From a bacterium CG10_46_32 (GTDB lineage Bacteria; Patescibacteriota; Patescibacteriia; UBA2169), in contig MOEI01000006.1 of the NCBI GenBank assembly GCA_001889965.1, positions 17,494-81,493 of the forward strand: a stretch of DNA of 64,000 nt. The letters are read 5' to 3'. The notes below the pieces were generated by a model. That model did not search any database and was not told the origin of the DNA. It worked only from the letters and a program-made list of their open reading frames with translations. Shown piece by piece: positions 9,345 to 60,252 of this stretch; the stretch's first letter is position 1, and every line of letters begins with the position of its first letter. Made by a program: the position numbers and the translations under genes.

Positions 9345-10099
9345 ACAATAAAGAGGCATTGCAAAAAGCATACGAGATATTGTCGCCGTATAGCAATAAA
9401 CAGCGCTGGGAATTAAACAATAATCTTGTGCACTTGCGGTTTATAACCAAGCATATTTCAAAGGAGAGCAGTATTTTAGATGTGGGATGCGGCATTGGAA
9501 TTTTAGATATTGCACTCATACTGCTTGGATATCATGTAGCCGGCGTTGATAAGTATCTCTTTGAATCGAACAATAGTTTTAGTATTAGCGATATTGATGG
9601 ACTGAAACGTATTTGGGAATCACAGGGGCTTTCAATTTTACCAAAGGATATATTGCAGGATGATGTCCTTGAGATGTATGGTGCAGTTATCAGTATCGCA
9701 ACCATAGAGCACCAGAAAGACCCAAAGAGGTTTTTGGAGCGCATACTTGGCGTCATTAGGCCGGGCGGGTTTATCTATATTGCAACACCAAACATCAGCC
9801 ATCTACTGAATCGAATTAGATTTTTGTTTGGCATGTCGCCTATGTCTGGGCATCTACAAAATTTTTTTAATCGCGGAGAATTATACGAAGGCCATTGGCG
9901 CGAGTATACATTGGGCGAATTGCGGCAGATATTTGTGTGGGTTAGTATTTTAGTTGTTTCAAGCCGAAACGTGCAGAGTATGCGGCCTGGATTCAGGGCG
10001 TTGTCTCCGCGTTCGTGGTACGTGAGTCTGTTTCGCGTGTTGTCTTATGTTATTCTTGGAACGCGGGACACGAATATTATTATCGGAAAAAAAGATTAA
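9341..10099 (+). CDS. Class I SAM-dependent methyltransferase
   Basis: Motif I LDVGCGIGILD. The post-I acidic residue is present. Confidence 0.7.
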   Translation: MNNKEALQKAYEILSPYSNKQRWELNNNLVHLRFITKHISKESSILDVGCGIGILDIALILLGYHVAGVDKYLFESNNSFSISDIDGLKRIWESQGLSILPKDILQDDVLEMYGAVISIATIEHQKDPKRFLERILGVIRPGGFIYIATPNISHLLNRIRFLFGMSPMSGHLQNFFNRGELYEGHWREYTLGELRQIFVWVSILVVSSRNVQSMRPGFRALSPRSWYVSLFRVLSYVILGTRDTNIIIGKKD

Positions 10100-10102
10100 T
10101 GT

Positions 10103-10915
10103 ATGGAAAATAAAAAAATACCATGCAGCGTACAAGTGCTTACTTTAAATTCAGGCGAAACTCTTTTGACGTGTTTGAAAAGTGTAAGGGATTTTGCGGA
10201 AATTGTTATTTTGGACGGAAATAGCACGGATAATACTGTTGAAATCGCCAAGGGCTATAGGACTAAGATATATCCGCAGTTCGATTCAAATGAGTCAAAT
10301 ATCCGTATTACAGATTTTGCCGCGGTACGGAACCGTGGATTGAAGATTGCGACTTATGATTGGTGCTTGATTCTTGATAGTGATGAATATTTGTCTCCAC
10401 AAGCGGCAGATGAAATTCGAGAAATTGTTGCGCGCGGCAGAGAGAACGAATATTTTATTTATAATCTTCCTCGCAAGTATGTGCTTGAAGGTAAGGAGGT
10501 GGCGAGCCTTAAGCCCACCTATCAGTTACGATTTTTTTACCGTCCGGCAACACTTGGATTTAGCAAGCGCGTGCACGAACGCATTAAGCCAAAAGAAGGC
10601 TTTGGTGTTGGCACGCTTATGTATCCCGAGTTCGTGCCCTTGGAAGACATTAAAACTTTGCGGATCAAGTGGGCGCACTATTTGGACATTGAACAGGATA
10701 AAATGCGCGATATAACCTTTGGTATGTTTTTGATTAAGGTTCGGGCAAATGTAGTTAAGTTTTTAAAATATATGCTAAAGGCCGCTTATAACACAATGCG
10801 GCATCCTCGAGCTGGGGTTCCATTTAAGTATGAATTCTATAACGCGGTGTACCATTTGCAGATAATCCATCGGCTTTTTATTAATTTAATACACAATACG
10901 CTCAAGAGAAAGTAG
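10103..10915 (+). CDS. Glycosyltransferase family 2 (GT-A)
   Basis: N-terminal VLTLNSGETL...ILDGNSTDNT, with DSDE as the DXD motif. Confidence 0.7.
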   Translation: MENKKIPCSVQVLTLNSGETLLTCLKSVRDFAEIVILDGNSTDNTVEIAKGYRTKIYPQFDSNESNIRITDFAAVRNRGLKIATYDWCLILDSDEYLSPQAADEIREIVARGRENEYFIYNLPRKYVLEGKEVASLKPTYQLRFFYRPATLGFSKRVHERIKPKEGFGVGTLMYPEFVPLEDIKTLRIKWAHYLDIEQDKMRDITFGMFLIKVRANVVKFLKYMLKAAYNTMRHPRAGVPFKYEFYNAVYHLQIIHRLFINLIHNTLKRK

Positions 10916-10928
10916 TACAAATAAAATT

Positions 10929-11888
10929 ATGAATAGCACCAATACATCAACAGATTTAACAGCACTAGAACACTCCAAAGCTATGTATCTTGCTTTTGAA
11001 AATCCTATAACAAAATTTTTCAAAAACTTTCTGCGTGAAAACGCTTTGTTGCGAAAATACCCAAGTTTTTTGTTGCAGTATAAATTTATGGCGTTTTTTC
11101 ATCACATGCTGTTTCCTTTTATGTATATTAAAAAAGGCGACACATGCGTGCAAGTAGGGTGCGCGGAGTGGATGCTTGATTTTGGAGTTTCCATGCCATT
11201 AATAATGTCGGCTATTGTTGGTGAGAGAGGCAGAGTGATTGTGGTTGAGCCGGACCAGCGGAATATCGAGGCACTGCGCTCGTACATGAAAAAAAACTAC
11301 ATACACAACATCACTATTGTTCCAAAAGCGGCATGGAGAGAAAAAACAACCAATCAATTTACCTTTTACGAAGACCGTTCCAGCACGAACATCATTACCG
11401 AGGTGGAGGAATCCGTGCCATGGAAAAACGATCCACAGTACCAAGGCCGCAAAAAGCGTATTGAAACCATTGAAATGGATACCATTGATAATATCATTCA
11501 AGAACTCGGCATTACACCTGATTTTGTGAATTTAACCATTAATTCCGCTGAATTTGATGTTATACATGGAATGACGGAGGTTATCCGGAAAGGTGTTATA
11601 GTGGCATGGCTCTTTGGGGATCGACCGTGGTGGCGGGAGGCGATTGATTATTTTAGAGTCAAGAACTACAGCATTATCGCCTGCGATTCCGCATATTCCC
11701 ACCGCGCTCCCACGGTTAATGGACGGGTGAGGATGTATTCGCATAAAGAGATCAGTGGCTTGTTTGATATCATGCATGCTGTTGCCATGCCGAGCGTTGG
11801 TAGGGTTCCTGACCATAGGGAATTTCCGGCAATATTGTACAAACGTAAGGATTTTGACTTTTTTGTGCAAAAAATTGACACCTTTTGA
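10929..11888 (+). CDS. FkbM-family methyltransferase (putative sugar O-methyltransferase)
   Basis: VQVGCAEW and VVVEPDQRNIEALR resemble FkbM domain motifs. Confidence 0.5.
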   Translation: MNSTNTSTDLTALEHSKAMYLAFENPITKFFKNFLRENALLRKYPSFLLQYKFMAFFHHMLFPFMYIKKGDTCVQVGCAEWMLDFGVSMPLIMSAIVGERGRVIVVEPDQRNIEALRSYMKKNYIHNITIVPKAAWREKTTNQFTFYEDRSSTNIITEVEESVPWKNDPQYQGRKKRIETIEMDTIDNIIQELGITPDFVNLTINSAEFDVIHGMTEVIRKGVIVAWLFGDRPWWREAIDYFRVKNYSIIACDSAYSHRAPTVNGRVRMYSHKEISGLFDIMHAVAMPSVGRVPDHREFPAILYKRKDFDFFVQKIDTF

Positions 11889-11913
11889 CACTTTCTGACA
11901 CTTTTGCTATAGT
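11885..11913 (+). promoter_or_regulatory. Sigma70-type promoter: -35 TTGACA (11885-11890), 17-bp spacer, -10 TATAGT (11908-11913)
   Basis: Both hexamers are read directly from the sequence. The -35 overlaps the upstream stop codon, and the ATG of the HTH gene lies 27 nt downstream of the -10. Confidence 0.6.
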
Positions 11914-11939
11914 AAAGGCATATTATAACTTATCCACAT

Positions 11940-12194
11940 ATGCCTCAAGAAATCAAGGAAAATGCGGTTTATACGACGCATGAAGCACAAGATTTGCTTA
12001 AAATTAGCGATAGTACGGTAAAACGGCTCTTAAAGCGGGGAGTTTTGCGCGCAAATAAGGTTGGGGGTCAGTACCGGATTTTAGGCAAGGAGATATTAAG
12101 GATTATCTCCCCAGAGCTGGAAAAACAGTCAGAAGATGTATACTTAAAAATCAAAAAGCGGGCGGTTGATGTTATCAATAAATGGCCGCAATAA
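11940..12194 (+). CDS. Excisionase-family / MerR-like helix-turn-helix DNA-binding protein
   Basis: 84 aa. YTTHEAQDLLKISDSTVKRLLKRGVLRANKVGGQYRI matches the excisionase-type HTH (TIGR01764-like) pattern. Confidence 0.6.
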   Translation: MPQEIKENAVYTTHEAQDLLKISDSTVKRLLKRGVLRANKVGGQYRILGKEILRIISPELEKQSEDVYLKIKKRAVDVINKWPQ

Positions 12195-12195
12195 T

Positions 12196-13356
12196 ATGCG
12201 TCTGCTTTACATTACTAACGCAAGAATGCCCACTGAAAAAGCGCATGGTTGGCAGATTGTAAAGATGTGCGAGGCATTTGCCAAAGCAGGTGCATATGTT
12301 GAGTTGTTTGTGCCTAAGCGGCGCAATCATATTAAAGAAGACGCGTTTTCCTACTACGGAATTGAAAAAAGATTCAATATACAGTACCTACCGTGCCTTG
12401 ATTTGGTCAGATTCGGAAAGTTGGGTTTTTACGTTCAGGTTTTTACGTTCACCGTATCGGCAGTCTTGGTTTCGCTGTTTAAAAAATCAGATGCAATCTA
12501 CTCCCGTGATGAAGTATTTTCCTGGGCGGAAAGCTTTTTCCGGAAGAACGTTTTTTACGAAATGCATGATTATCCGCGGAGCCATGGTTGGCTCTATAAG
12601 GGGCTGTTTAAAAGGGTTGCAAAGATCGTTTCAACGAACCAGATAAAAAAGAATCAATTAATGAAAGAGTTTGGTGTTCCTGAAGAAAAGATCATTGTTG
12701 CATCAAACGGGATTGATCTTGCTAACTTTACACCGGCATCAAAAGAGAGTTTGAGAAATAAATTTCCATTTCAGACCGCTACTATTCCTCAACATAAAAA
12801 GATTGTTAGTTATATTGGAAATAAAACATTTGGTCAACCTAAAGGTGAGGCTCGTCTGGTTGAGGCTTTTTCTCAATTATCTAAAAAACGAGACGACATT
12901 TTTTTCTTACTGACTGTCATTAATCACCGCGAATTTAAAGAGGTTGAAAGTATTTTTCAGAAGCATAGTGTCCCGCATTCGTCATATTGGATTCAAGCTC
13001 ATGCTCCTCGTCCGGTGGCCCATATGCTAATGCAATTATCTGATGTTCTAGTTATGAATTATCCAAATACAGAGCATTATGCACAGTTTATGAGTCCAAT
13101 CAAAATGTTTGAATACATGGCAAGCGGTACGCCGATTGTATCGTCCGATTTGCCGAGTATTCGCGAGGTGTTGAATGAAAATAATGCGGTATTGGTTGAG
13201 CCAGGTAATACGGAAGCTCTGGCAGCGGGTATCAACAAAGTGTTAAACGATGAAGCATTTGCAAAAAGGATTGCAGCACAAGCACAGGAAGATGTAAAAA
13301 AATATGGTTGGAACAAGCGGGCGAAAGCGTTGATTAGTATGATGCACGCGATATGA
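12196..13356 (+). CDS. Glycosyltransferase family 1 (GT4)
   Basis: N-terminal MRLLYITNARMPTEKAHGW and C-terminal EYMASGTPIVSSDLPSIREV. I chose the ATG at 12196, immediately after the upstream stop. Confidence 0.75.
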   Translation: MRLLYITNARMPTEKAHGWQIVKMCEAFAKAGAYVELFVPKRRNHIKEDAFSYYGIEKRFNIQYLPCLDLVRFGKLGFYVQVFTFTVSAVLVSLFKKSDAIYSRDEVFSWAESFFRKNVFYEMHDYPRSHGWLYKGLFKRVAKIVSTNQIKKNQLMKEFGVPEEKIIVASNGIDLANFTPASKESLRNKFPFQTATIPQHKKIVSYIGNKTFGQPKGEARLVEAFSQLSKKRDDIFFLLTVINHREFKEVESIFQKHSVPHSSYWIQAHAPRPVAHMLMQLSDVLVMNYPNTEHYAQFMSPIKMFEYMASGTPIVSSDLPSIREVLNENNAVLVEPGNTEALAAGINKVLNDEAFAKRIAAQAQEDVKKYGWNKRAKALISMMHAI

Positions 13357-17133: not shown

Positions 17134-17709
17134 ATGATACACGAATTTATTGGCCTTCCTGGGGCCGGAAAAAGTTATATGGCGAATCAGATTGCACAAT
17201 CTAAAGGAATTGTAGGAGTTGAGATCAAAAACACTAAAGAACGTTTGGCGCGCTCGTTGTTGTTTTTTATTAGCCATCCTTTTTTTTCGGCACGGCTGTT
17301 GGCGATATTTATACAAGAGAATTATAAAAATTCAAAACTGCTTAAACATAAGTTTGCCACCATTGTGTTAGAAATTATGGCACGCGAACAAAAGGTGAAA
17401 CAAGGGGAGATGATTGAAACAGGATTTTTTCAGCTTTTGCTTTCGATCTACGAAAGAGAAATCAGCGAAAAAGATGTTGCCTCTCTATTTTACTGGCTCA
17501 AAAAGCGGGATTACATGGTATATATTGTTGAAGCGAGTAGGGAAATCCGTGAAAAACGCATACAAGAACGAGGCCGCATTCCGCGCGGTGGAGTGGTTAC
17601 AGATACTTCTAAGCTTGTGGCATGGTTTGGACTGTTGGAGCATAATTTTGAAACCGTCAAACAAGGAATTATAAAAGATTTTTTATATGAACGTATTCAA
17701 AACAATTAA
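17134..17709 (+). CDS. P-loop NTPase, function unknown (small kinase- or ATPase-like)
   Basis: Walker A GLPGAGKSY at the N-terminus of about 191 aa. I chose the ATG at 17134. Confidence 0.45.
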   Translation: MIHEFIGLPGAGKSYMANQIAQSKGIVGVEIKNTKERLARSLLFFISHPFFSARLLAIFIQENYKNSKLLKHKFATIVLEIMAREQKVKQGEMIETGFFQLLLSIYEREISEKDVASLFYWLKKRDYMVYIVEASREIREKRIQERGRIPRGGVVTDTSKLVAWFGLLEHNFETVKQGIIKDFLYERIQNN

Positions 17710-20362
17710 ACATTTGGTATGGCGCAGGGCGTTTTGGGTGGCGCTTTTTGTAGTGATGGTCGCGGTGAATGCCGTGCTGGTGCTTGCGTATATGAGTAAC
17801 AATCGCAATCAACTGATTTACAGCCCCATAGCCAAAGCCGGATTGCCATTCTATCGTTCGGCGCGGGAAGTGATTAATGCAGCCATCGACAGCACCTATG
17901 TGTTTGCCATGCGCAGGGACGTAGGGATTCCGCAGTACCGTTTAGAGATTGCAACCGATGATTTGCGCAAACTCAACAATGCACTCCCCAGCTCGCTTGA
18001 TAACGAGGTGATTGCAGGTAGCATCCTTTTTGACGAGGCTTTAAAAGATACAGTTAAAGGGGTATTGCATTATGGAGACAAAGCCTATGATGTAAAAGTG
18101 CGTTACCGTGGATTAAATCCAAACCATTGGACTCGCCCAAAAAAATCCTGGCAGATTAAATTTAACAAAGACACGCCGTTCCAAGGAATCCGCACGCTTA
18201 AACTTATTATTCCGGTTGACCGCGGGTACTTTGCCGAGGCTCTCAACAACTACCGCGCCAAAAAATTAGGCTTATCCTACCCTGCCGCGGAGTTTGTCCA
18301 GCTGTATGTAAATAATAATTACCAGGGCGTATATTTTAGCGTGGAAGATTTTTCCGCTGCGTTTTTGGAGCGCAGCCAACTTCCGCCGGACGCGAATATC
18401 TACGCGACCGACGAGCCGCTTAGTACGGACCAAGAGGACGCAATAGCGTATGACAGTGTTTCGTTCTGGAACAAGCAGACGAGTGACACACTGTTTAATT
18501 TTGATAATTTTTCAGAATTGGATTTTTTATTGAGCCGCATGCAGCAAGATAATTTTGCAGATGTTGCGCCGGATATTATTGACATGGACAATTTTTATAG
18601 CTGGAACATAGTGGCGCTTTTGGCAGGGAGTAACCATCAGAGCGACTGGGGAAACATGCGTCTGTATTTTAATAATGTAAAAGGAAAATTTGAATTTATC
18701 CCTTGGGACGTGGGGCTCAAAAATACCATGCCGGATCAATTAGCCAATGAGCTCACAGAGAAACTCCTTTCCAATCCCACATTCTACCAGGAACGAAATC
18801 GCCGGTTATGGGAATATGTAAGCAACGAAAAAAATTTGCAGGATGATGTAACGTACTATGACGGATTATACAACCAGCTTAAAGGCGCTTTTTATAGTGA
18901 TTTTAAAAAGCATGAGAACAATCACACGTTTAACGGGCGCGTTGTAGAAATCCGAAACCAGTATGCGGGATTGTTTGGTACGCTCAAAGGATTGTTTGGA
19001 GAAGATATTATTAATCTGACAGTGCGGCATGATGCATCTAAAAAAATACTCGCGCTTTCGTTTGAGGTGGATAGTTTTGCGGGAGTGACTCTTGCGGGCA
19101 TAACCCTTCCCCAAGGATCGCAACTGGTTTCCAATACGGGCCAATACCTGTTTCGACCGAATGAAGATGTTGCAATAACATATTCCGGTGTCCCCATTGG
19201 CGATATTTCCAGTATTATATTCAATCTTATACATGCAGTGACTGGCGAGCCGGTTGGTATCGGTTCTATCCGGTTTATCGACAACTCTACCTTTGCCAAG
19301 TTTGACGATGTGCGCGCCTCTGCGGAATCATTTGTCGCTGCGCATGCGCAGTTTAGGCTGGAGAATAATGAGATTATACTACCTTCTGGAATACATGTTT
19401 TTTTGGAGGACATAGTAGCTCCCAAAGATGTTTTAGTCAGCATCCAACCTGGCACAACCATTTATTTTGCTCCTGGAGTTTCGTTTGTTTCGTATAGTCC
19501 GATTGAGGCGCTGGGAACAGCGGGTAGGCCCATTGTGCTCCGCCGACTTAATCCAAATGAGCCATGGGGAAGTTTCGCAATATTGAACGCTGGGTCAAAT
19601 AAGAGCACAATTGAGTACTTGGATGCTGATGGTGGAGGAAGTGACTACATCAACGGATCGTTTATAAGCGGCATGGTATCTGTATATTATTCGGATATCG
19701 AAGCGCGCAATCTCACCATTTCTCGGTCAGCAAGCGACGATGGCATGAATCTTAAATATTCAAAAGTTTTGGTTATGCAGAGCACCTTTAATAATAATTC
19801 CGCAGACGGATTAGACGGAGATTATATTTCCGGTACTATTGATGGAAGTGTATTTTTAGATAATGGTAATGATGGTATTGATTTAAGCGGCTCACGCATC
19901 ATGATAAGCAATAATCGCCTTGCTGGTTCCGGCGACAAATGCGTCAGCATCGGCGAAGGCACGAATAACACAGTTATTTTTAATACCATACTGGATGGTT
20001 GCCATATTGGCGTGCAGGCAAAGGATGGATCCTATCCGGCAGTCATCAATTCCATTATCATCAATAATGATATCGGTATTGATACATACCGCAAGAAAGA
20101 GTTGTATATAACCGGCGGGCATATAGTAGTGAGCAATTCCATTATTCGCGGCAATGCAGAGGCTGTGCACCAGGATGAATTTTCGGATATTGCGGTTTCT
20201 TTTTCCAATATTCAAGGCGCATATTCCGGCGAAGGAAATTTTGATGAAGATAAAAATTATTTTTTGGTTCAAGATATTGGCAAGGGAGACACACATACAG
20301 TTATCCAGTATGCGGGTATTAATGTAGAGCAGGCGCCGGTTGGTTTGTTTGAAGCATTTTAA
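17687..20362 (+). CDS. CotH-kinase-family protein with N-terminal TM anchor and C-terminal right-handed beta-helix (pectin-lyase-like) repeats
   Basis: CotH core VKVRYRGLNPNHWTRPKKSWQIKFNK...LKLI...LYVNNNYQGVYFSVEDFSAAFLER. C-terminal repeated N/G/D/I-rich beta-helix turns (NNRLAGSGDKCVSIGEGTNNTVIFNTILDGCHIGV...). Confidence 0.7.
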   Translation: MNVFKTIKHLVWRRAFWVALFVVMVAVNAVLVLAYMSNNRNQLIYSPIAKAGLPFYRSAREVINAAIDSTYVFAMRRDVGIPQYRLEIATDDLRKLNNALPSSLDNEVIAGSILFDEALKDTVKGVLHYGDKAYDVKVRYRGLNPNHWTRPKKSWQIKFNKDTPFQGIRTLKLIIPVDRGYFAEALNNYRAKKLGLSYPAAEFVQLYVNNNYQGVYFSVEDFSAAFLERSQLPPDANIYATDEPLSTDQEDAIAYDSVSFWNKQTSDTLFNFDNFSELDFLLSRMQQDNFADVAPDIIDMDNFYSWNIVALLAGSNHQSDWGNMRLYFNNVKGKFEFIPWDVGLKNTMPDQLANELTEKLLSNPTFYQERNRRLWEYVSNEKNLQDDVTYYDGLYNQLKGAFYSDFKKHENNHTFNGRVVEIRNQYAGLFGTLKGLFGEDIINLTVRHDASKKILALSFEVDSFAGVTLAGITLPQGSQLVSNTGQYLFRPNEDVAITYSGVPIGDISSIIFNLIHAVTGEPVGIGSIRFIDNSTFAKFDDVRASAESFVAAHAQFRLENNEIILPSGIHVFLEDIVAPKDVLVSIQPGTTIYFAPGVSFVSYSPIEALGTAGRPIVLRRLNPNEPWGSFAILNAGSNKSTIEYLDADGGGSDYINGSFISGMVSVYYSDIEARNLTISRSASDDGMNLKYSKVLVMQSTFNNNSADGLDGDYISGTIDGSVFLDNGNDGIDLSGSRIMISNNRLAGSGDKCVSIGEGTNNTVIFNTILDGCHIGVQAKDGSYPAVINSIIINNDIGIDTYRKKELYITGGHIVVSNSIIRGNAEAVHQDEFSDIAVSFSNIQGAYSGEGNFDEDKNYFLVQDIGKGDTHTVIQYAGINVEQAPVGLFEAF

Positions 20363-42842: not shown

Positions 42843-43150
42843 ATTCGTTTAGGGCTAAGCCGTATGATGGGCACAAGGTATTGTACAATAAGATTTTTAG
42901 CAAAGCTGAAATTAGTTACTGCTTAAACAAAAATGATAGCTACGCTAGTTTTGCGGGAAAGTTTTGCGCCAAAGAAGCCGTGATAAAAGCGTTTAAGCAT
43001 ACTAATCTTTTTGATATTATATCTGTTGAAATTATAAATAATGCAAACGGCGAACCCGAAGCGTTTACAAACGGAAATAAATTACATTGTTTTTTGTCGA
43101 TTTCACATACCAACGATCAAGCGCTCGCGTTCTGCGTGGCGTATGCGTAA
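42803..43150 (+). CDS. acpS: Holo-[acyl-carrier-protein] synthase (4'-phosphopantetheinyl transferase, AcpS type)
   Basis: GVGTDIEII...FAGKFCAKEAVIKA motifs. Length is 115 aa. Confidence 0.7.
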   Translation: MEILGVGTDIEIINSFRAKPYDGHKVLYNKIFSKAEISYCLNKNDSYASFAGKFCAKEAVIKAFKHTNLFDIISVEIINNANGEPEAFTNGNKLHCFLSISHTNDQALAFCVAYA

Positions 43151-43151
43151 T

Positions 43152-44687
43152 ATGGCTCATCTTGTACAACAATATATTGATCGTAATGCACGACAGAATC
43201 CAAAAAAGACGGCTGTAGTGTTTAACGATGAAAGTATAACGTATAAGGATTTGGAGGAATATACAAACCAGCTTGGCCGCGTGCTTAAAAAAGCTGGTGT
43301 AGGCAAAGGGGATCGAGTTTGTTTTTGCCTATATAAATCAATCAATTCCATTAAAGCCATTTTTGGTATTCTAAAAGCGGATGCAAGCTATGTGCCTTTG
43401 GATGCGTTTTCTCCGGCCGCGCGTTTAAAAAAAATTACACAAGACGCCGAACCCAAGGTGCTGGTCTGCGATACAGATACTATGGCACTGGTTAAATCCA
43501 TTATTCCTGTATCTGTCACTGTAGTGTGCTTAGGGAAGAAACGGGTAGATGACAGTATTCTTGCAGAAAAAAAAATCAGCCCTTCTTGTACAAATACTCC
43601 GGAAGACGTAGCATATATTTTTTACACCTCCGGCTCGACCGGAACCCCCAAAGGTGTTATGATAACTCATCGTAATCTTAATGGATGCGCAGATTGGGCT
43701 GTGCGTGAGTTCGGCATTACCAAAAAGGACACGCTCTCTTCCCACCCACCGTTTCATTTTGACCTATCAACGTTTGATATATATGCATGCTTTAAGGCAG
43801 GCGCAACATTGGTTATTGTTCCTGAAAAATTTTCTGTATTTCCGGGCGCGCTTTTAGACTATATTGAGCACCATAGTATGACCATTTGGAATTCCGTGCC
43901 GTCACTCCTCTCGTATGTGGCGCGTTCCGGAGTTTTAACCAAAGATCGTATCCCGCTCGTTAAAAAGATTTTTTTTAACGGTGAAGTGTTTTCACCAAAA
44001 TATCTTGCCCAATGGATGACAATGTATCCTAAAAAAGAATTCGTAAACATGTATGGGCCAACAGAAGCAACAGTGCAGTGCAGTTTTTATCGAATTAAAA
44101 GAGTGCCGAAAAATTTGAAAAAGCCAGTACCTATTGGAAAATCTTGCAGCAACGCTAAAATTTTTGCGGTTACAGTGGATGGCAAAATCGCACGGCCGGG
44201 TCAGCGCGGCGAATTATACATTGGCGGTAGCGGGGTTGGTCGTGGATATTGGAGGAATAGGGAAAAAACCAAAGAATCCTTTGTGCAAAATCCTTTTGCC
44301 GCACCCAAAGGAATCGTGTATAAAACCGGAGACTTTGTATTATACAATAAAAATAAGGAGTACGAGTTTTTAGGAAGGATCGACCACCAGGTGAAGCATA
44401 TGGGCTACCGCATTGAATTAGGAGAGGTGGAGTCCGCGCTTTTGTCTATCTCATACATAAAAGAAGCAATCGTGGTTGCATACGAGAAAGAAACTGGAAA
44501 TGAACTGGCCGCATTTGTAGTTACATCCGGTAAGCGTTCTGCGGCGAGCATAATAGCAGACCTCCGCACGATTGTCCCTGCGTACATGGTTCCGGGCAAG
44601 GTGCTCATGCTTCCGTCATTACCAAAAACCAGCACTGGAAAAACAGACCGTGTGACATTAAAGGAACAGTATGTCGCAAAAGTATAA
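43152..44687 (+). CDS. Adenylate-forming enzyme (AMP-dependent ligase; DltA / amino-acid-or-acyl carrier protein ligase-like)
   Basis: YTSGSTGTPKGV A3 motif, YGPTEAT, and the YKTGD...GRxDxQVKxxGxRIELGE A8-A10 region. ATG at 43152, right after the acpS stop. Confidence 0.8.
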   Translation: MAHLVQQYIDRNARQNPKKTAVVFNDESITYKDLEEYTNQLGRVLKKAGVGKGDRVCFCLYKSINSIKAIFGILKADASYVPLDAFSPAARLKKITQDAEPKVLVCDTDTMALVKSIIPVSVTVVCLGKKRVDDSILAEKKISPSCTNTPEDVAYIFYTSGSTGTPKGVMITHRNLNGCADWAVREFGITKKDTLSSHPPFHFDLSTFDIYACFKAGATLVIVPEKFSVFPGALLDYIEHHSMTIWNSVPSLLSYVARSGVLTKDRIPLVKKIFFNGEVFSPKYLAQWMTMYPKKEFVNMYGPTEATVQCSFYRIKRVPKNLKKPVPIGKSCSNAKIFAVTVDGKIARPGQRGELYIGGSGVGRGYWRNREKTKESFVQNPFAAPKGIVYKTGDFVLYNKNKEYEFLGRIDHQVKHMGYRIELGEVESALLSISYIKEAIVVAYEKETGNELAAFVVTSGKRSAASIIADLRTIVPAYMVPGKVLMLPSLPKTSTGKTDRVTLKEQYVAKV

Positions 44688-44928
44688 CATTCAAAAAATC
44701 GAATCAAGCCTAAAATCTTTTTTGGAAAAAGAAACCAAGAGTGTTATCGCGAGCCGCGACACTGATTTGGTCAAGAAAGGCATTATCAGCTCCTTGGATA
44801 TGTTTTTACTGATTGAATTTATAGAAAAAAAATTCAAAGTGAGTGTGGACATCACCACGCTTAATCCAGAAAATTTTAATTCACTCCGGTCTATCGCCGC
44901 GCACATCGCACTATGGACATCGATATAA
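44671..44928 (+). CDS. Acyl/peptidyl carrier protein (DltC-like)
   Basis: 85 aa with the GIISSLDMFLLIEFIE phosphopantetheine attachment site. Confidence 0.65.
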   Translation: MSQKYNIQKIESSLKSFLEKETKSVIASRDTDLVKKGIISSLDMFLLIEFIEKKFKVSVDITTLNPENFNSLRSIAAHIALWTSI

Positions 44929-53283: not shown

Positions 53284-54510
53284 ATGGAAAAAGCTAGAGA
53301 AAAAAGACCGATATTTATTGTCGGATGCACTCGCAGCGGCACCAAGCTCGTATCCCGCATTGTGGGCGGGCATCTTGATAATTTTTTAATTACCGAGCAC
53401 CGCGAAAAATTCCACATTCCCGAGGACCGTTCCGGCGTGTGCGAAGAGCACTTGTGGTTTAATAATTTTGAATTTAAGCATTGGGGAAAAAACGGGGATC
53501 CTTTAGTACGGACACCTATCTACAATAAAGCAGATATTGCCCGCATGAAAGAGATATTATTGTCTCTTTCTGGAGCCAAGCGGTTGGTGGTTAAAAATCC
53601 GCAGGATATTTTACGAATCCGTTTTATTAAAAAAATGTTCCCAGATGCCTTGTTTGTTTTTTGCGTGCGGAACCCATGGCATGGTTTGCAGTCTCGAATT
53701 ATTGGTGGCGAGGCAAAGTATTTAATCCCATCGGAGAAGAATTTTGAATTGCCGGATGATCTGTTGCTTAAGTCCGTGTATTCATGGAAAGAGAGTATTG
53801 ATATTTACCAGAACGAGCATGATGAAAACTGGTGCGCAATCCGGTATGAGGATGTTGTGTTTAGCACCAAGGATACACTTGCTAAGTTGTTTGAGTTTTT
53901 AGGAATGGATTCGCATTCTGAATACTTCAATAGGGCGTGCTCCTTGCCGCGGGATTTAGAACATCAGTATTATCCGGTTAAAAAAGCATTTAAGAAGAGT
54001 GCATTTAAAAAAGAAATAATGGATATTGTTCATGACGGATGTGCCGTATTTCCGTATGAGACATCTATTGATTTGGTTCCCGGAAGCGCGTGGCACTACT
54101 ATTTATTAGAGAAGGATATCATTAACATCAAGTGGCTTAAAGCGCGTTTTATTGGAATCACTAAGTGCATGTCTAAAAGCATTTTGCGGATTGTTTTTTA
54201 CGTAGTGGGTGGTGTCCGTAAAACCATAGTGAGCCACATTATGTTTGCCGCTCTTTCCGAAGGGGCAAGCGCGTTTGTTTCCACGGAGGATGCCAAAATC
54301 GCGGATGTTGCTGGGCATAGTAAAAAAGATGAAACAGCATCATTTATTGTTTCGCAAATGCAGTATCAGCGCCTTAGGCATTTTAATCGTGTGATTGTTT
54401 TAGATAGCACAGGATCTTCGTGGCTATTGCTTAAGAATATTGACTTTTTTCCGGAAAAACAGTATAATTATATACTTAATGGAAAGGTAGAATACATAAA
54501 ACATGCTTGA
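53284..54510 (+). CDS. Sulfotransferase-domain protein (PAPS-dependent) with a C-terminal extension
   Basis: 5'-PSB-like PIFIVGCTRSGTKLV and 3'-PB-like FVFCVRNPWHGLQS. Confidence 0.5.
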   Translation: MEKAREKRPIFIVGCTRSGTKLVSRIVGGHLDNFLITEHREKFHIPEDRSGVCEEHLWFNNFEFKHWGKNGDPLVRTPIYNKADIARMKEILLSLSGAKRLVVKNPQDILRIRFIKKMFPDALFVFCVRNPWHGLQSRIIGGEAKYLIPSEKNFELPDDLLLKSVYSWKESIDIYQNEHDENWCAIRYEDVVFSTKDTLAKLFEFLGMDSHSEYFNRACSLPRDLEHQYYPVKKAFKKSAFKKEIMDIVHDGCAVFPYETSIDLVPGSAWHYYLLEKDIINIKWLKARFIGITKCMSKSILRIVFYVVGGVRKTIVSHIMFAALSEGASAFVSTEDAKIADVAGHSKKDETASFIVSQMQYQRLRHFNRVIVLDSTGSSWLLLKNIDFFPEKQYNYILNGKVEYIKHA

Positions 54511-57295
54511 TATGGCGCAAAAAACTAAGCTCATTGTGACGCTCGGCCCGGCAACGCGGACTCTTGAAGATTTGTGTCTTTTAAAAGATCGAGACGTTGA
54601 TTTTGTGCGCATCAACATGTCGCATTCCACTTTAGAAGATTTAGAATATTTTATTGCGCTTGCAAAAAAGGTTGGCATTCCGTTTGTGCTGGATACCGAA
54701 GGCTCGCAGATACGCACTGGAGAGCTAGCTGAAAACTCTGCACACATTAAAGAGGGCGCATCTGTAAAAATTTATCGCGATGCGATTATTGGAGATAGTG
54801 AGCGCATCAACCTGCGCCCTTCAATTGCGGTCGAGCAGCTTGTTTCCGGGGACATTATTCACATTGATTTTAATTCTCTCATTTTGCGCGTTTCCGAAAC
54901 TGCGCTGCTCGCAACCGAAGGCTATATCATGGCAACCGCAATTACGAGCGGCACGCTCGGTCGAAATAAGGCGGTGGTGGTTGATAGCGCTTTGGAAACT
55001 ATGTTCCGCTTGCCAGTTTTGTCCGAAAAAGATTACCAAGCAATTGAGATCGGATTACGGGAGGGCGTTGAATATATTGCCGCCTCGTTTATGCGCAACG
55101 AGCAGTTTGTAGACGAAGTACGTAAGGCAACAAACAACAAAATGAAAATTATTTCCAAAATAGAGTGCAAAGACGCGCTCCAGAATCTCGAACCTATTAT
55201 CAATGCATCTGATTTTATTCTTATTGATCGTGGAGATTTAAGCAAAGAGATAGCAATCGAAAAAATCCCTTTGGTACAAAAAACCATTATGAGCCTTGCA
55301 CGCAAACAGCAGAAGGGTGTGTTTGTCGCCACAAACCTTTTGGAGAGCATGATAGAGAAAAAACAGCCCACGCGTGCAGAAGCGCACGATGTGATTGCAA
55401 CTATTTTGGATGGAGCGTATGGATTGGCTTTATCCGCAGAAACCGCCATCGGGAAAAACCCAATTGCGTGTGTGAATATGATGAACCGCTTGTGCCGCCA
55501 AACAGCGCTTGTGCACGAGGATACTCATTACCAAAAAGCAAATGACGGAATTGCGGAGGACATGTTGGATATGAACTATCTGCTTTCGGATGACGACTCT
55601 TCGATTCTTATTAAGCCTCATGGCGGAACATTAGTTGATTGCGTTTTGCGGGAGGTGCCTGATGCTAGTTATCTGGAGTCGCTCCCTCGCATTGTGCTGG
55701 ACCAAGAGCGGCAAATGGATGTTGAGCAGATTGCAATTGGAACATTTAGCCCGATTGAGGGGTTTATGGGCAAAAAGGATTTTGACGGCGTGCTCAATGA
55801 TATGCGCCTTGTGAACGGTTCGGCGTGGACTATTCCTATTATATTAGATGTTTCAGAACATACAGCCAATAACCTTAAAGAGGGTTCAGACGTGGTTTTG
55901 TGTGATAGCGAAGGCCCAATGGCTATTTTACATTTGGAGGAAAAGTTTAATTTTAATAAGAGTGAAACTAACCAAAAACTGTATGGCACCGAGAGCATAG
56001 AACATCCAGGTGTGCGCTGGATTAATTCTTTGAACCCAATTCTACTTGGCGGAAAAATCAGCCTTATCCGCAGACGCGTGTCCGAACAGAAGGAGTACGA
56101 ACTTACTCCGCGCCAGGTGCGCAGGATGTTCGAAGAGCGCGGTTGGTCGCGTGTGGTTGGATTCCATACGCGCAATGTAATTCACCGCAGCCATGAATTC
56201 ATTCAATTAGAGGCTATGCGTCGTGCGAACGCGGACGGCTTGTTTATTCATCCGGTTATCGGTAAAAAGAAGCCTGGAGATTTTCATGCTAAGTACATTA
56301 TTGGCGCGTACGAGCAGATGGTAAAGCATTTTTATCCGCGGGACAAAGTGGTATTTGCGACATATGCCACGTTTTCCCGTTATGCGGGTCCGCGCGAGGC
56401 TATTTTTACGGCGCTCTGCCGAAAGAATTTCGGATGCAGCCATTTTGTTGTGGGCCGTGATCATACTGGAGTCGGGGATTTTTACTATCCTAAAGCATCC
56501 CATGAAATTTTTAATCAATTCAAAGATTTAGGTATTGAGCCGATTCGGTTTGATCAAGTATTCTATTCAAAAAAACTCAATGCGCATGTGCATGAAACTG
56601 ATGATACAGAACATTCCGAGGAAGAAAAAATGCATATCAGCGGCACGCAAGCCAGGCAGATGATAGAGCAGGGTCAGCAGCCGCCAGAATGGTTTATGCG
56701 TCCGGAGATTTCCGCAATGATTCTTGAGGCCATCGCGTCCGGAGAAGAGGTGTTTGTGTCGGAACAGGCAGCGCCGCAGCGTGGAGTTGTGCTGTGGTTT
56801 ACGGGTCTTTCTGGAAGCGGCAAGACTACTATTGCAAGTAGGATTGCGTGTACTTTGGGAGAACGTGGCGCGCGTGTTACCATGCTCGACGGGGATACGG
56901 TTCGCGAACAGTTTAAAGTCCAACTTGGGTTCTCCAGAGAAGACATAAGAGAAAATAACCGCCGTATCGCCGAACTCGCAAAGGAAGAGTCAGCGCGCTT
57001 TAATGTGGTGATTGTGTCTATTATTTCTCCATATGCCGAGGACCGAACAATGGCGCGTTCCATTATTGGCAAGGGATTTGTTGAGGTATTTATCAACGCG
57101 TCTCTTGAGGCGTGTATGGCTCGGGATACTAAAGGATTATATGGTCGCGCTCAACGGGGCGAGATGGACAACCTTATCGGATTCAGTCCGTCCAACCCAT
57201 ACGAGGCGCCGATTAATCCGGATATAGAGATAAAAACGGACGAACTATCTATAGAGCAGGCTATCATTCAAATTATCAATAGCTTACCAAACTAA
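54503..57295 (+). CDS. Tri-domain fusion: pyruvate-kinase-like barrel domain + sulfate adenylyltransferase (ATP sulfurylase) + adenylylsulfate (APS) kinase
   Basis: PK-like region (aa 1-330): KLIVTLGPAT, RINMSHS, LDTEGSQIRTG, ISKIECKD, IDRGDLSKEI, ATNLLESM...PTRAE, LSAETAIGKNP. ATP sulfurylase region: PUA-like IKPHGGTLVD...GTFSPIEGFMG and catalytic GFHTRNVIHRSHE. APS kinase region: VLWFTGLSGSGKTTIA. Confidence 0.75.
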   Translation: MLDMAQKTKLIVTLGPATRTLEDLCLLKDRDVDFVRINMSHSTLEDLEYFIALAKKVGIPFVLDTEGSQIRTGELAENSAHIKEGASVKIYRDAIIGDSERINLRPSIAVEQLVSGDIIHIDFNSLILRVSETALLATEGYIMATAITSGTLGRNKAVVVDSALETMFRLPVLSEKDYQAIEIGLREGVEYIAASFMRNEQFVDEVRKATNNKMKIISKIECKDALQNLEPIINASDFILIDRGDLSKEIAIEKIPLVQKTIMSLARKQQKGVFVATNLLESMIEKKQPTRAEAHDVIATILDGAYGLALSAETAIGKNPIACVNMMNRLCRQTALVHEDTHYQKANDGIAEDMLDMNYLLSDDDSSILIKPHGGTLVDCVLREVPDASYLESLPRIVLDQERQMDVEQIAIGTFSPIEGFMGKKDFDGVLNDMRLVNGSAWTIPIILDVSEHTANNLKEGSDVVLCDSEGPMAILHLEEKFNFNKSETNQKLYGTESIEHPGVRWINSLNPILLGGKISLIRRRVSEQKEYELTPRQVRRMFEERGWSRVVGFHTRNVIHRSHEFIQLEAMRRANADGLFIHPVIGKKKPGDFHAKYIIGAYEQMVKHFYPRDKVVFATYATFSRYAGPREAIFTALCRKNFGCSHFVVGRDHTGVGDFYYPKASHEIFNQFKDLGIEPIRFDQVFYSKKLNAHVHETDDTEHSEEEKMHISGTQARQMIEQGQQPPEWFMRPEISAMILEAIASGEEVFVSEQAAPQRGVVLWFTGLSGSGKTTIASRIACTLGERGARVTMLDGDTVREQFKVQLGFSREDIRENNRRIAELAKEESARFNVVIVSIISPYAEDRTMARSIIGKGFVEVFINASLEACMARDTKGLYGRAQRGEMDNLIGFSPSNPYEAPINPDIEIKTDELSIEQAIIQIINSLPN

Positions 57296-57304
57296 AATAA
57301 AAAT

Positions 57305-57604
57305 ATGAATATTGATATTACCCAGATCCTCGGTTGGATAGCCACGTTTCTTTTTTCAGTAATGCTCATACCACAGATGATTAAAACTATTAAAGTCAAA
57401 GACACAAGTGGGGTGAGTTTGTTTTTGTTTATAATTTACTTCGTTGCAAATATTGTGGCACTCGCATATGCTTTATTAATCGACCAAATGCCGCTCATCA
57501 TAAAATATTCAATAGCAATCGGAACTGCGGCAGCATACTTGTCCATATTTGCGTATTATTATCAAAAGCAGCAAAAGAAAAGCCATGAATCTTCCGAAAA
57601 ATGA
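57305..57604 (+). CDS. PQ-loop / SemiSWEET-like 3-TM membrane protein
   Basis: 99 aa, three TM helices, LIPQMIKTIK PQ motif after TM1. Confidence 0.45.
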   Translation: MNIDITQILGWIATFLFSVMLIPQMIKTIKVKDTSGVSLFLFIIYFVANIVALAYALLIDQMPLIIKYSIAIGTAAAYLSIFAYYYQKQQKKSHESSEK

Positions 57605-58391
57605 TTTTTTACCCGAGCTTTTTTTGGCAGTAGAAGCCGCGAAAACAGCCGGGGACGCAGTGCTTGTAATTTACAAAACGGATTTTGACGTGGCCGAAAA
57701 AGAGCCGGGCCAACTCATAACGCTTGCGGATACAGATGCTGACGCGGTTATTCATGCGATGCTTAGAAAAACAGGGTATCCCATTCTTTCGGAAGAGAGC
57801 GCGGACGATTTTGTTCGTTTGCAAGCGGAGCGCGTGTGGATTATTGATCCCTTGGACGGAACTGCGGATTTTGTGGAAAAGACCGGCGAATTTTCTATAA
57901 TGATTGCGCTCATAGAAAATCATGAGCCAATTATAGGAGTAGTGTACGCTCCAGCAACTGACACTCTGTATGTTGCAGAAAAAGGGAAGGGTGCCTTCTG
58001 TTGCACTCATGGCGGATGGAATCAGATTTATGTGAGCAACACCGCGCAGATGCCATCTGCAAAAGCAGTCACCAGCAGGCATCATTTTACCGAAGAAGAG
58101 CATAATATACTTGATGCACTTGAGGTTGGAGAATTTATTCAAAAAGGGAGCGCGGGATTGAAAATTGCAGACATAGCGCAAGGGAGTGCAGATTTTTATT
58201 TTACACTGACTAACCAAATTAAGCAGTGGGATACTGCAGCTGGTTATTGCATTCTTGCAGAGGCAGGGGGCTGTATGACTGACATGCAAGGCAATGCGCT
58301 TATATACAATACCGAGGACGTCTACCATAAAAATGGAATTTTAGTTACCAATAGTGTACTACATAGCGTTGTTTTGCAATCATATGCCTGA
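57585..58391 (+). CDS. cysQ: Inositol monophosphatase family; probable 3'(2'),5'-bisphosphate nucleotidase (CysQ-like PAP phosphatase)
   Basis: LSEES...WIIDPLDGTADFV metal-binding motifs and the WDTAAG motif. ATG at 57585. Confidence 0.6.
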   Translation: MNLPKNDFLPELFLAVEAAKTAGDAVLVIYKTDFDVAEKEPGQLITLADTDADAVIHAMLRKTGYPILSEESADDFVRLQAERVWIIDPLDGTADFVEKTGEFSIMIALIENHEPIIGVVYAPATDTLYVAEKGKGAFCCTHGGWNQIYVSNTAQMPSAKAVTSRHHFTEEEHNILDALEVGEFIQKGSAGLKIADIAQGSADFYFTLTNQIKQWDTAAGYCILAEAGGCMTDMQGNALIYNTEDVYHKNGILVTNSVLHSVVLQSYA

Positions 58392-60252
58392 TATTTTTTT
58401 TCCGAGCGATGCAATAAAAAATCAAGCGCATATAACCGAAGATGAATACAATCGGTTGTATGCAGAATCTCTGGGCGATCCAGAGGCTTTTTGGGATAGG
58501 GTTGCGCGCACCGAGCTTGAATGGTTTTCCCCATGGGAAATGGTTTTGGATTGGCAGTATCCACAGTACAAATGGTTCGTCGGCGGCAAGCTTAATATTA
58601 CGCATAACTGCCTTGATCGCCATGTTAACGGAATCAATAAGTACAAAAAAGCCTTTATCCATATTGATGAAGAAGGTGTGGAGACTTCGGTGACGTATAT
58701 GGAGCTCTTGGAGCGTGTAAATAGATGTGCAAATGCGTTACGTTCTTTGGGGGTAGCAAAAGGCGATCGCGTGGTTTTATATATGCCGCTGGTTATAGAG
58801 CAGGTTGTGGTAATGCTCGCCTGTGCGCGCATTGGTGCTGTTCATTCTGTGGTGTTTGCAGGTTTGAGCGATAAAGCCTTGCGCGAGAGAATTGTAGACT
58901 CAGAAGCGAAGGTTGTTATTACTGCAAATTGGACTAAGCGGCGTGGCAAAAAAATAGACCTCAAGGGTGTTGTTGGGCGTGCAACCGAGGGCTTAGACAC
59001 TGTTCAGAGCATTGTGGTGCTTGTGCGGGATGGCGATGCGTGCGAACTGCACACAAAAGAAGTTAATTTTGATGATATTGTAGCAAAACAATCCGCAGTA
59101 TGCGTACCCGTGCCCATGGATTCGGAGGATCCGCTTTTTGTGCTGTATACATCTGGATCTACCGGTAAACCAAAAGGCATCGTGCATACTACAGGCGGGT
59201 ACAGCGTGTATACGCATTACACCACTAAAATTGTTTTTGATTTAAAAGATAACGATACGTACTGGTGCACTGCCGATCCGGGATGGATTACCGGACATAG
59301 TTATGTGGTGTATGGCCCGCTTTCTATAGGCGCCACATCTCTCTTAGTTGAGGGTGCTCCTGATTACCCTAAGCCAGACCGATGGTGGGAGATTATTGCA
59401 AAGTATCATGTGAATATTTTTTATACATCGCCGACAGCTATTCGTCTCTTGCGCAAGCATGGTGAGCAGTATGTGTCGCCCCATGATCTTAGTTCGTTAC
59501 GTGTTCTTGGAACCGTTGGAGAGCCAATTAGCGAAGAGGTATGGGGGTGGTTTTATGAGCGCATTGGAAAAGGCAGGTGTGTGCTTATTGATACCTGGTG
59601 GCAGACTGAAACAGGCGGGCATATGATTGTTTCTTTGCCTTCGTTGCCGCAAAAGCCAGGTATTGCAGGCAGGCCGTTTTTTGGTATTGAGGCGGATGTT
59701 GTCGATGTTCAAGGTACGCGCCTGCGTGATGGTGAAAAAGGGCTTTTAGTAATACGTAAGCCATGGCCTTCGGCGTTGCGCACCTGTTGGAATGATGAAG
59801 AGCGGTTCGAGCAGTATTGGAGCGAGATTAAAGGTGTGTATTGTGCCGGTGATTTAGCTATTAGAGATTCGGACGGATATATTAAAATCATCGGCCGCAG
59901 CGATGATGTGATTAATATTTCTGGGCACCGGATTGGCACTGCGGAGGCAGAGAGCGCAATTGGAACGCACCCGGCGGTTGCGGAAGTTGCGGTTATCGCA
60001 AAATCGCACGAAATAAAAGGGCAGGCTATTAAGGCGTTTGTGGTGCTAAAATCAGGCCACAGCGAGTCCGACCAATTACGTAATGAGATTAAGCTCCAAG
60101 TGAAGAGTGAAATAGGTTCGTACGCGGTTCCAGAGGAGGTTGTGTTTGTTCCGACATTGCCTAAAACGAGAAGCGGGAAAATAATGCGCCGCGTTTTGCG
60201 CGCACAAGAATCTGGAGAAGATGTTGGGGATTTGTCTACGATCGAGGACTAG
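58384..60252 (+). CDS. acs: Acetyl-coenzyme A synthetase (acetate--CoA ligase)
   Basis: N-terminal FWDRVARTELEWFSPWEMVLDW...KWFVGGKLNITHNCLDRHV, YTSGSTGKPKG, and the C-terminal PKTRSGKIMRRVLR. Confidence 0.85.
   Translation: MPDIFFPSDAIKNQAHITEDEYNRLYAESLGDPEAFWDRVARTELEWFSPWEMVLDWQYPQYKWFVGGKLNITHNCLDRHVNGINKYKKAFIHIDEEGVETSVTYMELLERVNRCANALRSLGVAKGDRVVLYMPLVIEQVVVMLACARIGAVHSVVFAGLSDKALRERIVDSEAKVVITANWTKRRGKKIDLKGVVGRATEGLDTVQSIVVLVRDGDACELHTKEVNFDDIVAKQSAVCVPVPMDSEDPLFVLYTSGSTGKPKGIVHTTGGYSVYTHYTTKIVFDLKDNDTYWCTADPGWITGHSYVVYGPLSIGATSLLVEGAPDYPKPDRWWEIIAKYHVNIFYTSPTAIRLLRKHGEQYVSPHDLSSLRVLGTVGEPISEEVWGWFYERIGKGRCVLIDTWWQTETGGHMIVSLPSLPQKPGIAGRPFFGIEADVVDVQGTRLRDGEKGLLVIRKPWPSALRTCWNDEERFEQYWSEIKGVYCAGDLAIRDSDGYIKIIGRSDDVINISGHRIGTAEAESAIGTHPAVAEVAVIAKSHEIKGQAIKAFVVLKSGHSESDQLRNEIKLQVKSEIGSYAVPEEVVFVPTLPKTRSGKIMRRVLRAQESGEDVGDLSTIED

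Follow-up and report, generated by a model that had tools for sequence, protein, structure and literature searches.

The subject of this analysis is a fusion gene in a 64,000-nucleotide stretch of contig MOEI01000006.1 from the bacterium CG10_46_32 (the window, in what follows). At 54503..57295 on the + strand lies an uninterrupted open reading frame (ORF) of 930 aa that joins a pyruvate kinase (PK), the PUA-like (PUA_2) and catalytic domains of ATP sulfurylase (Sat), and an adenosine 5'-phosphosulfate (APS) kinase (CysC). The JGI gene call starts three codons downstream, at 54512, which may be the true start, and gives a protein of 927 aa that is otherwise 100% identical (P0001). All modules lie on the + strand. 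The PK module, made of the (beta/alpha)8 A domain and an inserted B lid, occupies 54518..55537 (aa 6-345), with the lid at nt 54704-54997 (aa ~68-165). It is followed by a variable linker without conserved columns (55538..55609, aa 346-369), by the PUA-like N-terminal domain of ATP sulfurylase (55610..56071, aa 370-523; PF14306, E 1e-44), by the sulfurylase catalytic domain (56093..56728, aa 531-742; PF01747, E 4e-78), and finally by the APS kinase module (56780..57286, aa 760-928; PF01583 over aa 760-911, E 1e-49). An initial annotation, made from the letters of the window, had proposed that these three enzymes share one ORF, and both Pfam and NCBIfam bear this out.

The PK barrel profile (PF00224) matches aa 6-324 over positions 2-328 of its 328 (E 1.1e-63, 215.7 bits against a cut-off of 30), and no match to the C-terminal PK domain (PK_C, PF02887) is present in the protein at E <= 0.01 in Pfam, as anticipated by the initial annotation, which had reported this regulatory domain as missing. 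The NCBIfam pyruvate kinase family TIGR01064 stays below its cut-off (276.2 vs 306.4 bits) because the match is limited to profile positions 1-346 of 476. The sulfurylase and APS kinase modules, also described beforehand as complete, score above the cut-offs of TIGR00339 (sulfate adenylyltransferase, 364.3 vs 322.95), NF003166 (430 vs 387) and TIGR00455 (APS kinase, 185.9 vs 138.7). The equivalog for bifunctional Sat/CysC, NF004040, remains below cut-off with the whole protein (449.3 vs 669 bits), and the Sat-CysC part appears from its sequence to be a Sat-CysC-type enzyme of a distinct lineage to which an extra module has been added.

Catalytic residues are intact in all three modules. The sulfurylase carries the motifs HTRNVIHRSHE, PVIGKKKPGD and GRDHTG; relative to the active-site pattern QxRN...HxxH plus GRDHAG, the Arg, the Asn, both His and the RDH are kept, with the variants HTRN (Q to H) and GRDHTG. 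The QTRN motif named in the initial annotation is therefore to be corrected, its HRSHE part being present. In the APS kinase module, the P-loop GLSGSGKT (GxxGxGK[ST]) and LDGDTVR, with its DGD, accompany the domain score and place it in the APS kinase family. An AlphaFold2 model built from a 75-sequence alignment is confident throughout (mean predicted local distance difference test score 90.4, predicted template modelling score 0.78), the linker being folded as a helix and then a coil. In Foldseek, the PK part superposes on PykF with a root-mean-square deviation (rmsd) of 2.4-3.2 A over ~346 columns, and the C-terminal part matches 2gks (best), 1i2d and 8a8d; 2gks (E 3e-104) and 8a8d are also the best PDB matches of the Sat-CysC part by sequence. 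Across Sat and CysC together the superposition on 2gks has an rmsd of ~10 A, and the domain placement in this monomer model is therefore uninformative on the oligomer.

Alignment of the PK module to the enzymes of M. tuberculosis (5wrp), G. stearothermophilus (2e28) and E. coli (PykF) is confined to the A and B domains (E 4e-53 to 1e-47). The catalytic set is kept (R36, N38, S40, D64, T65, R71, K156, K219-I-E221, G244-D245, T277, PTRAE, E313), and in rabbit PK numbering R72, N74, S76, D112, T113, R119, K206, K269, E271, G294, D295, T327 and E363 are all present. The ligands of phosphoenolpyruvate (PEP), Mg, the K site and the nucleotide phosphates are invariant in 75 of 75 aligned family members. 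The barrel motifs, including the Lys-Ile-Glu and Asp positions, had been noticed from the window alone, and the PDB alignments and the 75 members agree; a lack of PEP- or ADP-binding residues on careful alignment, which had been named as grounds for giving up the idea, is not what we found, since every ligand is there.

The family nevertheless has a signature of its own. Where canonical PKs have DTKGPEIR, its members have DT[E/Q]G[S/A]Q[I/V]R (DTEGSQIR in the window protein), and they carry ATN instead of ATQ in the PK, and HTRN instead of QTRN together with GRDHTG in Sat; such shared signatures suggest a single origin followed by spread. Gln is invariant at rabbit position 117 and position 114 is Glu or Gln, so that the family belongs to neither the Glu117 nor the Lys117 type with their covarying residue 114. 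PKs that depend on K+ have Glu at position 117 and K+-independent ones have Lys, and in K+-independent enzymes of crenarchaea the position can also hold other residues, among them Gln (PMC4374775); the cation dependence of the family does not appear to be predictable from this position.

Mean pairwise identity is 0.62-0.67 in the PK barrel, 0.69 in the Sat catalytic domain, 0.54 in CysC, 0.52 in PUA_2 and 0.31 in the linker. The PK barrel is thus conserved at the level of the Sat catalytic domain, and the PK is under purifying selection across the whole family. A decayed PK relic is ruled out by the residue invariance and these per-module levels.

The initial annotation had called the fusion unusual and, in the sense of rare, this did not hold. 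Two JGI samples yielded the identical protein in separate assemblies, on contigs of 82 kb and 7.9 kb, and a search of 5.8 billion proteins gave more than 120 clusters (90% identity) with PK, PUA_2 and ATP sulfurylase, with or without APS kinase, mostly from Parcubacteria, Paceibacterota and other members of the candidate phyla radiation (CPR) and named 'sulfate adenylyltransferase', 'pyruvate kinase' or 'hypothetical'. With a query that straddled the junction of PK and Sat, 220 representatives were retrieved at E <= 1e-30 from 1.84 billion proteins, and a single alignment crosses the junction in ~110 of the best 150, down to ~35% identity. Overall, the family comprises roughly 100 or more 50%-identity clusters from many phyla. 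We also scanned one genome per GTDB species, which gave at least 599 pattern matches, and analyzed the best 80 loci with 10 kb flanks: PK and Sat lie within one ORF in 79 of these 80. Carriers include CPR bacteria, DPANN archaea, Chloroflexota, Acidobacteriota, Gemmatimonadota, Planctomycetota, Omnitrophota, Myxococcota and Bacteroidota, as well as a cultured strain with a RefSeq genome, [Flexibacter] sp. ATCC 35103, and among the complete genomes with the fusion are CP070780 (Omnitrophota) and CP070763 (Latescibacterota); labels such as 'uncultured Gammaproteobacteria' or 'Methanosarcinales' on some loci from metagenome-assembled genomes were not used for taxonomy. PK-Sat(-CysC) is a widespread family under strong selection whose members are listed in databases under generic automatic names.

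The APS kinase is the variable part of this architecture. Among the 79 loci it is fused in 22, has a gene of its own, as a rule the adjoining one, in 31, and is absent within the 10 kb flanks in 26, and 70 of 72 divergent representatives are two-domain PK-Sat proteins. The tri-domain unit singled out in the initial annotation thus stands for the window gene and fails for the family, in which the PK has the sulfurylase fold as its conserved partner: PK-Sat forms an invariant core, the three-domain form is a subset, and in every case the Sat fold takes the place of the PK C domain. We could not find any description of the PK-Sat architecture in the literature searched, where PK appears only as a coupling enzyme (most papers in subscription journals lay outside the search), nor, by Foldseek and by sequence search, any PDB entry covering both the PK and the Sat-CysC parts, which fits the earlier remark that such an enzyme was not among the characterized ones. 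Several variants were observed: PK-Sat-CysC-CysQ in one ORF at L006:99-3230, its 5' end cut by the contig edge; CysC-CysQ fusions in either order (L031:15057-16379, L058:12246-13580); an additional N-terminal nucleotidyltransferase in P0078 (1019 aa); two outliers by length, P0264 (1051 aa) and P0017 (1341 aa); and P0146 (859 aa), in which a PK of Lys117 type (DLPGPKIR) is fused to a live Sat and which, judging from that motif, is possibly the product of an independent fusion event.

Members with a live PK and a dead Sat are frequent. All three sulfurylase motifs are lost, with the PK motifs kept, in 23 of 70 divergent representatives, among them P0122, P0126, P0128, P0134, P0142, P0151, P0154, P0169, P0190, P0201, P0208, P0209, P0214, P0220, P0228, P0234 and P0237 (subfamily loci L083-L088). 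The family PK motifs are kept in 67 of the 70, the three exceptions being one truncation and two outliers of a different PK type. In a neighbour-joining tree of the PK domain the dead-Sat forms are scattered as sisters of live ones, and by our count the Sat catalytic motifs were lost independently at least eight times. Since Sat motifs are lost often and PK motifs are kept, the PK is the selected catalytic constant of the family, and the Sat fold can serve as either catalyst or scaffold. An APS kinase lies directly beside P0128, and sulfotransferases directly beside P0151, P0169 and P0209; the 280-aa ORF next to the fusion in L085 has no sulfotransferase match. A PK that was a mere add-on to a tri-functional enzyme does not predict such members. 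In three Chloroflexota loci (L042:2828-4519, L045:14084-15778, L046:4494-6251), a second gene of 'Sat-CysC' type adjoins PK-Sat; both sulfurylase motifs are missing from it and the APS kinase P-loop and DGD are intact. It resembles the Thiobacillus denitrificans protein 3cr8.

In the window, the fusion gene is the second of a run of five genes whose ends overlap or nearly abut. Upstream, at 53284..54510 (+), lies a sulfotransferase of 408 aa (Sulfotransfer_3 E 4e-23, Sulfotransfer_1 E 3e-8), the presumed consumer of 3'-phosphoadenosine 5'-phosphosulfate (PAPS), whose stop overlaps the start of the fusion gene (54510 vs 54503); its Sulfotransfer_3 match is confined to aa 9-209, the C-terminal ~190 aa being without a family match. 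Downstream follow a PQ-loop/SemiSWEET-like membrane protein of 99 aa (57305..57604, +; PF04193, E 2.5e-12), a CysQ-like 3'(2'),5'-bisphosphate nucleotidase for removal of 3'-phosphoadenosine 5'-phosphate (PAP) (57549..58391, +; Inositol_P, E 2e-56), and directly after it an AMP-forming acetyl-CoA synthetase (58354-60252, +). The best NCBIfam match of the CysQ-like gene is TIGR01331 (CysQ) with 194 bits, under the 229-bit cut-off, and its start is likely 57585, the JGI call being of 268 aa. The same five-gene order recurs in L079, including the sulfotransferase orthologue upstream and the acetyl-CoA synthetase in its position, with PK-Sat and CysC as separate genes. PAPS synthase, sulfotransferase and PAP phosphatase are thus co-located at 53284-58391 as a PAPS-dependent sulfation module, and this recurs in L079 and in many other loci.

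The PQ-loop protein (three transmembrane segments, ~95 aa) is found beside PAPS genes in ~10 of the 79 loci, including L012, L030, L055, L058, L061, L063, L073 and L079, and is fused to the N-terminus of APS kinase in two genomes (L027:2391-3311, L048:12258-13058). This suggests a membrane component tied to sulfate activation, perhaps in sulfate uptake or in the handling of PAPS or PAP; we know of no role in sulfate activation for SemiSWEET-like proteins.

The context in other genomes is similar. In ~50 other loci, sulfotransferases occur more often than any other neighbour family, and the remainder belong to polysaccharide biosynthesis. A role in assimilatory or dissimilatory sulfate reduction was rejected, as CysH, sulfite reductase and Apr are absent from the top 25 neighbour families of these loci, among which sulfotransferases and glycan genes dominate. 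In ATCC 35103 (locus L053, NZ_MTQF01000013.1, 818-12772), the genes run in the order SbnA-family diaminopropionate synthase, C-A-T-C-A-T-TE nonribosomal peptide synthetase (NRPS), 290-aa ORF, and PK-Sat-CysC, the last at 9995-12772. This strain is a described producer of the N-sulfonated monobactam SQ 28,332 (PMC9248904), and L053 is very likely the SQ 28,332 cluster, with the fusion supplying PAPS for N-sulfonation. The 290-aa ORF has a marginal match only, to heparan sulfate 2-O-sulfotransferase (E 0.066). From the sulfotransferase and glycan context together with the monobactam-type one, it follows that the family supplies PAPS for sulfotransfer, and not for sulfur assimilation. In addition, a PEP-utilising-enzyme mobile domain (PF00391) occurs in three neighbours of two-domain PK-Sat genes without a nearby cysC, which hints at further PEP-linked chemistry nearby.

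We propose, with a probability of roughly 0.58, that the fusion is a PAPS synthase which removes ADP and regenerates ATP by itself at the expense of PEP, and which would serve the adjacent sulfotransferase in a cell-surface glycan cluster. The sulfurylase module would convert ATP and sulfate to APS, the APS kinase module would phosphorylate APS to PAPS with release of ADP, and the N-terminal PK module, free of its allosteric C domain, would move phosphate from PEP to this ADP, so that local ATP would stay high and ADP low, the PAP by-product being cleared by CysQ. We infer turnover of the PK, its coupling to Sat and CysC, a kinetic benefit and any channelling between the sites. Human PAPSS1 accumulated PAPS in vitro when a PK/PEP regeneration system was supplied, and PAPS was 'practically missing' when it was not (PMC9885120), a need that arises because of dead-end inhibition by ADP and APS, ADP trapping the APS kinase. 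ADP also binds ATP sulfurylase almost exactly like the product APS (PMC3734648), which provides a rationale for a PK tied to the Sat fold and not to CysC alone. ATP regeneration, already put forward in the initial annotation, is therefore a plausible idea that now appears better motivated.

Several points weigh against this proposal. The thermodynamically limiting step is that of the sulfurylase, and the PK uses neither of its products, APS and inorganic pyrophosphate (PPi), so that any help could only be kinetic or come through the kinase step. The 26 of 79 loci without an APS kinase within 10 kb indicate that strict PK-CysC coupling is not universal, and ATP regeneration for a fused synthase does not obviously explain the live-PK/dead-Sat members that lie by sulfotransferases. 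The family also has invariant changes by the K+/nucleotide site (K114E, P116S and E117Q in rabbit numbering, and Q328N), and a PK without its C domain, being unregulated, might deplete PEP if nothing gates it. Given the dead-Sat subfamily and the changes near the cation/nucleotide site, a more specialised role is conceivable: the Sat fold could stand in for the PK C domain as an allosteric element, or the nucleotide specificity could have changed.

The alternative that survives best, unlikely as we consider it, is that the PK-like module departs from classical pyruvate kinase in the phosphoryl transfer that it catalyses or in the nucleotide that it uses, for instance regenerating GTP for a CysDN-type sulfurylase or taking APS as a substrate or gate, with the Sat fold as a substrate-presenting or allosteric domain in place of the PK C domain. 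The replacement of the C domain by the Sat fold in every case would fit such chemistry, as would the persistence of dead-Sat/live-PK members by sulfotransferases without a nearby APS kinase. Dead catalytic domains acting as scaffolds have precedents in 3cr8 and in the Chloroflexota Sat*-CysC proteins, and in fungal ATP sulfurylase an inactive APS-kinase-like domain is an allosteric sensor. The invariant non-canonical signature (DT[E/Q]G[S/A]Q[I/V]R, ATN) lies by the site of the monovalent cation and nucleotide phosphate, and nearly all other PKs have Glu or Lys at position 117 (PMC4374775). However, Gln and other residues occur at this position in active, K+-independent archaeal PKs (PMC4374775), the PEP, Mg2+ and ADP-phosphate ligands are all unchanged, which makes ordinary PK chemistry the simplest assumption, and nothing points directly to an alternative substrate.

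A related and bolder reading, which we hold to be somewhat more doubtful, makes the PK the obligatory catalytic heart of a PEP-coupled sulfation machinery, in which the Sat fold, live or dead, would be a docking or allosteric replacement of the PK C domain, and phosphoryl transfer would be channelled or gated by APS, PAPS or ADP as a functional analogue of the GTP-coupled CysDN, or else the PK would have acquired a new nucleotide specificity. It is motivated by the fact that Sat catalysis was lost repeatedly and that of PK essentially never, and that the sulfotransferase link is kept in the dead-Sat forms.

It appears improbable that the PK module is non-catalytic and acts as a structural or oligomerisation scaffold, or as a sensor of PEP or energy that regulates or stabilises sulfate activation. 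The allosteric and tetramerisation C domain is indeed lost, and domain 'death' is frequent in the sulfate-activation pathway, but none of the 75 aligned members deviates in the metal ligands, the catalytic Lys or the proton-donor Thr, which are also kept in 67 of the 70 divergent representatives, the PK matches the Sat catalytic domain in conservation, and the asymmetry is plain, Sat being often dead and PK essentially never.

Still less probable is a housekeeping glycolytic PK fused to sat-cysC in a reduced genome with no functional coupling. Many carriers are CPR or DPANN with small genomes, and JGI pipelines have named some members 'pyruvate kinase'; yet the fusion is also found on contigs of 5.8 and 10.4 Mb in Acidobacteriota (L050) and Ardenticatenaceae (L045), where a canonical PK is to be expected by inference only. 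Moreover, the gene lies within sulfotransferase, glycan or NRPS clusters everywhere, the family is marked by a signature of its own that looks monophyletic, and it lacks the regulatory domain expected of a PK controlling glycolytic flux. An assembly or frameshift artefact joining a separate pyk to sat-cysC, the refutation foreseen in the initial annotation, has next to no chance of being true, given the identical protein in two independent assemblies, the more than 120 clusters with the same layout, the single ORF at 79 of 80 loci of many phyla including the RefSeq genome of a cultured strain, and the ~110 representatives that align across the junction in one stretch.

Comparison with known systems places the proposed PAPS synthase with built-in PK among several related solutions. 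The SAT/APS kinase of Aquifex aeolicus (2gks) and the bacterial Sat-CysC proteins of NF004040 share with the fusion the order PUA-like domain, sulfurylase, APS kinase, with both active sites intact; the Aquifex enzyme is truly bifunctional and is the closest solved relative, but has no N-terminal PK, and has QTRN where the fusion has HTRN. The ATP sulfurylase-inorganic pyrophosphatase fusions of stramenopiles and haptophytes (Patron et al. 2008, PMC2275785) follow the same logic of a helper enzyme fused to the sulfurylase, and the paper on them makes no mention of pyruvate kinase (PMC2275785). They are eukaryotic, however, and their unrelated helper removes PPi and thereby exerts a thermodynamic pull, whereas the PK-Sat helper would remove ADP and supply ATP. 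Metazoan PAPSS1/2 likewise have sulfurylase and APS kinase in one polypeptide, in the reversed order (kinase first) and without PK. In the hexameric two-domain APS kinase of T. denitrificans (3cr8), an inactive sulfurylase-like domain is a scaffold, a state shared by the Sat*-CysC neighbours in L042, L045 and L046 and by the dead-Sat/live-PK subfamily; there is no PK in 3cr8, and the Sat of the window is live by its motifs.

Canonical PKs (PykF, the G. stearothermophilus and M. tuberculosis enzymes, PKM) have the same A and B domains and full catalytic set, but also the C-terminal allosteric and tetramer domain and DTKGPEIR; the fusion has no C domain, has Gln117, and its PK is covalently joined to a sulfurylase. 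The short PKs of NF005234/PRK06739 (a profile of 352 positions) are a recognised A+B family without C domain, which the PK of the window matches at E 1e-46; they stand alone, unlike the fusion, and the window protein scores far under their cut-off (160 vs 564 bits). Finally, CysDN(C) couples sulfate activation conformationally to GTP hydrolysis, with folds unrelated to Sat. Both this system and the fusion would spend a second high-energy phosphate compound, the PEP coupling of the fusion being a proposal.

PAPS synthesis is the universal entry to biological sulfation, and is limited by the unfavourable equilibrium of the sulfurylase and by inhibition by ADP and APS. Nature is known to meet this in three ways, by a fusion to APS kinase or to pyrophosphatase and by coupling to a GTPase; if our proposal is true, PEP-driven recycling of the nucleotide would be a fourth, widespread and conserved. 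The automated names 'sulfate adenylyltransferase' and 'pyruvate kinase' hide this architecture, and metabolic reconstructions of CPR and DPANN may count a PK-Sat gene as a glycolytic pyruvate kinase. PK and PEP are already added by hand in chemoenzymatic PAPS syntheses (PMC9885120), and a single polypeptide making PAPS from sulfate, PEP and catalytic adenylate would, if the proposal holds, be attractive for the chemoenzymatic production of heparin, chondroitin sulfate and sulfonated antibiotics. As a cultured monobactam producer carries the fusion, the system is directly testable. The live-PK/dead-Sat subfamily raises the separate question of what benefit the PK brings to sulfotransferases.

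The window as a whole is a co-directional surface-glycan cluster of ~60 kb, which includes NeuB, two UDP-GlcNAc 2-epimerases, sugar dehydratases, aminotransferases, glycosyltransferases, a priming sugar transferase and an ABC exporter. Up to 60.2 kb the genes are almost without exception in + orientation, and GC skew is positive in every 2-kb bin; we found no tRNA genes in the window (1-64000). The closest named relatives are CPR bacteria (Komeilibacteria 73%, Parcubacteria 71%), so that the window probably derives from a genome of Patescibacteria; its source is JGI sample 3300004210. The glycan cluster also encodes an 891-aa protein with a CotH kinase domain and a right-handed beta-helix (17687-20362, +), and an AMP-binding enzyme with an overlapping 85-aa ORF (43041-44928, +) that could be a carrier protein.

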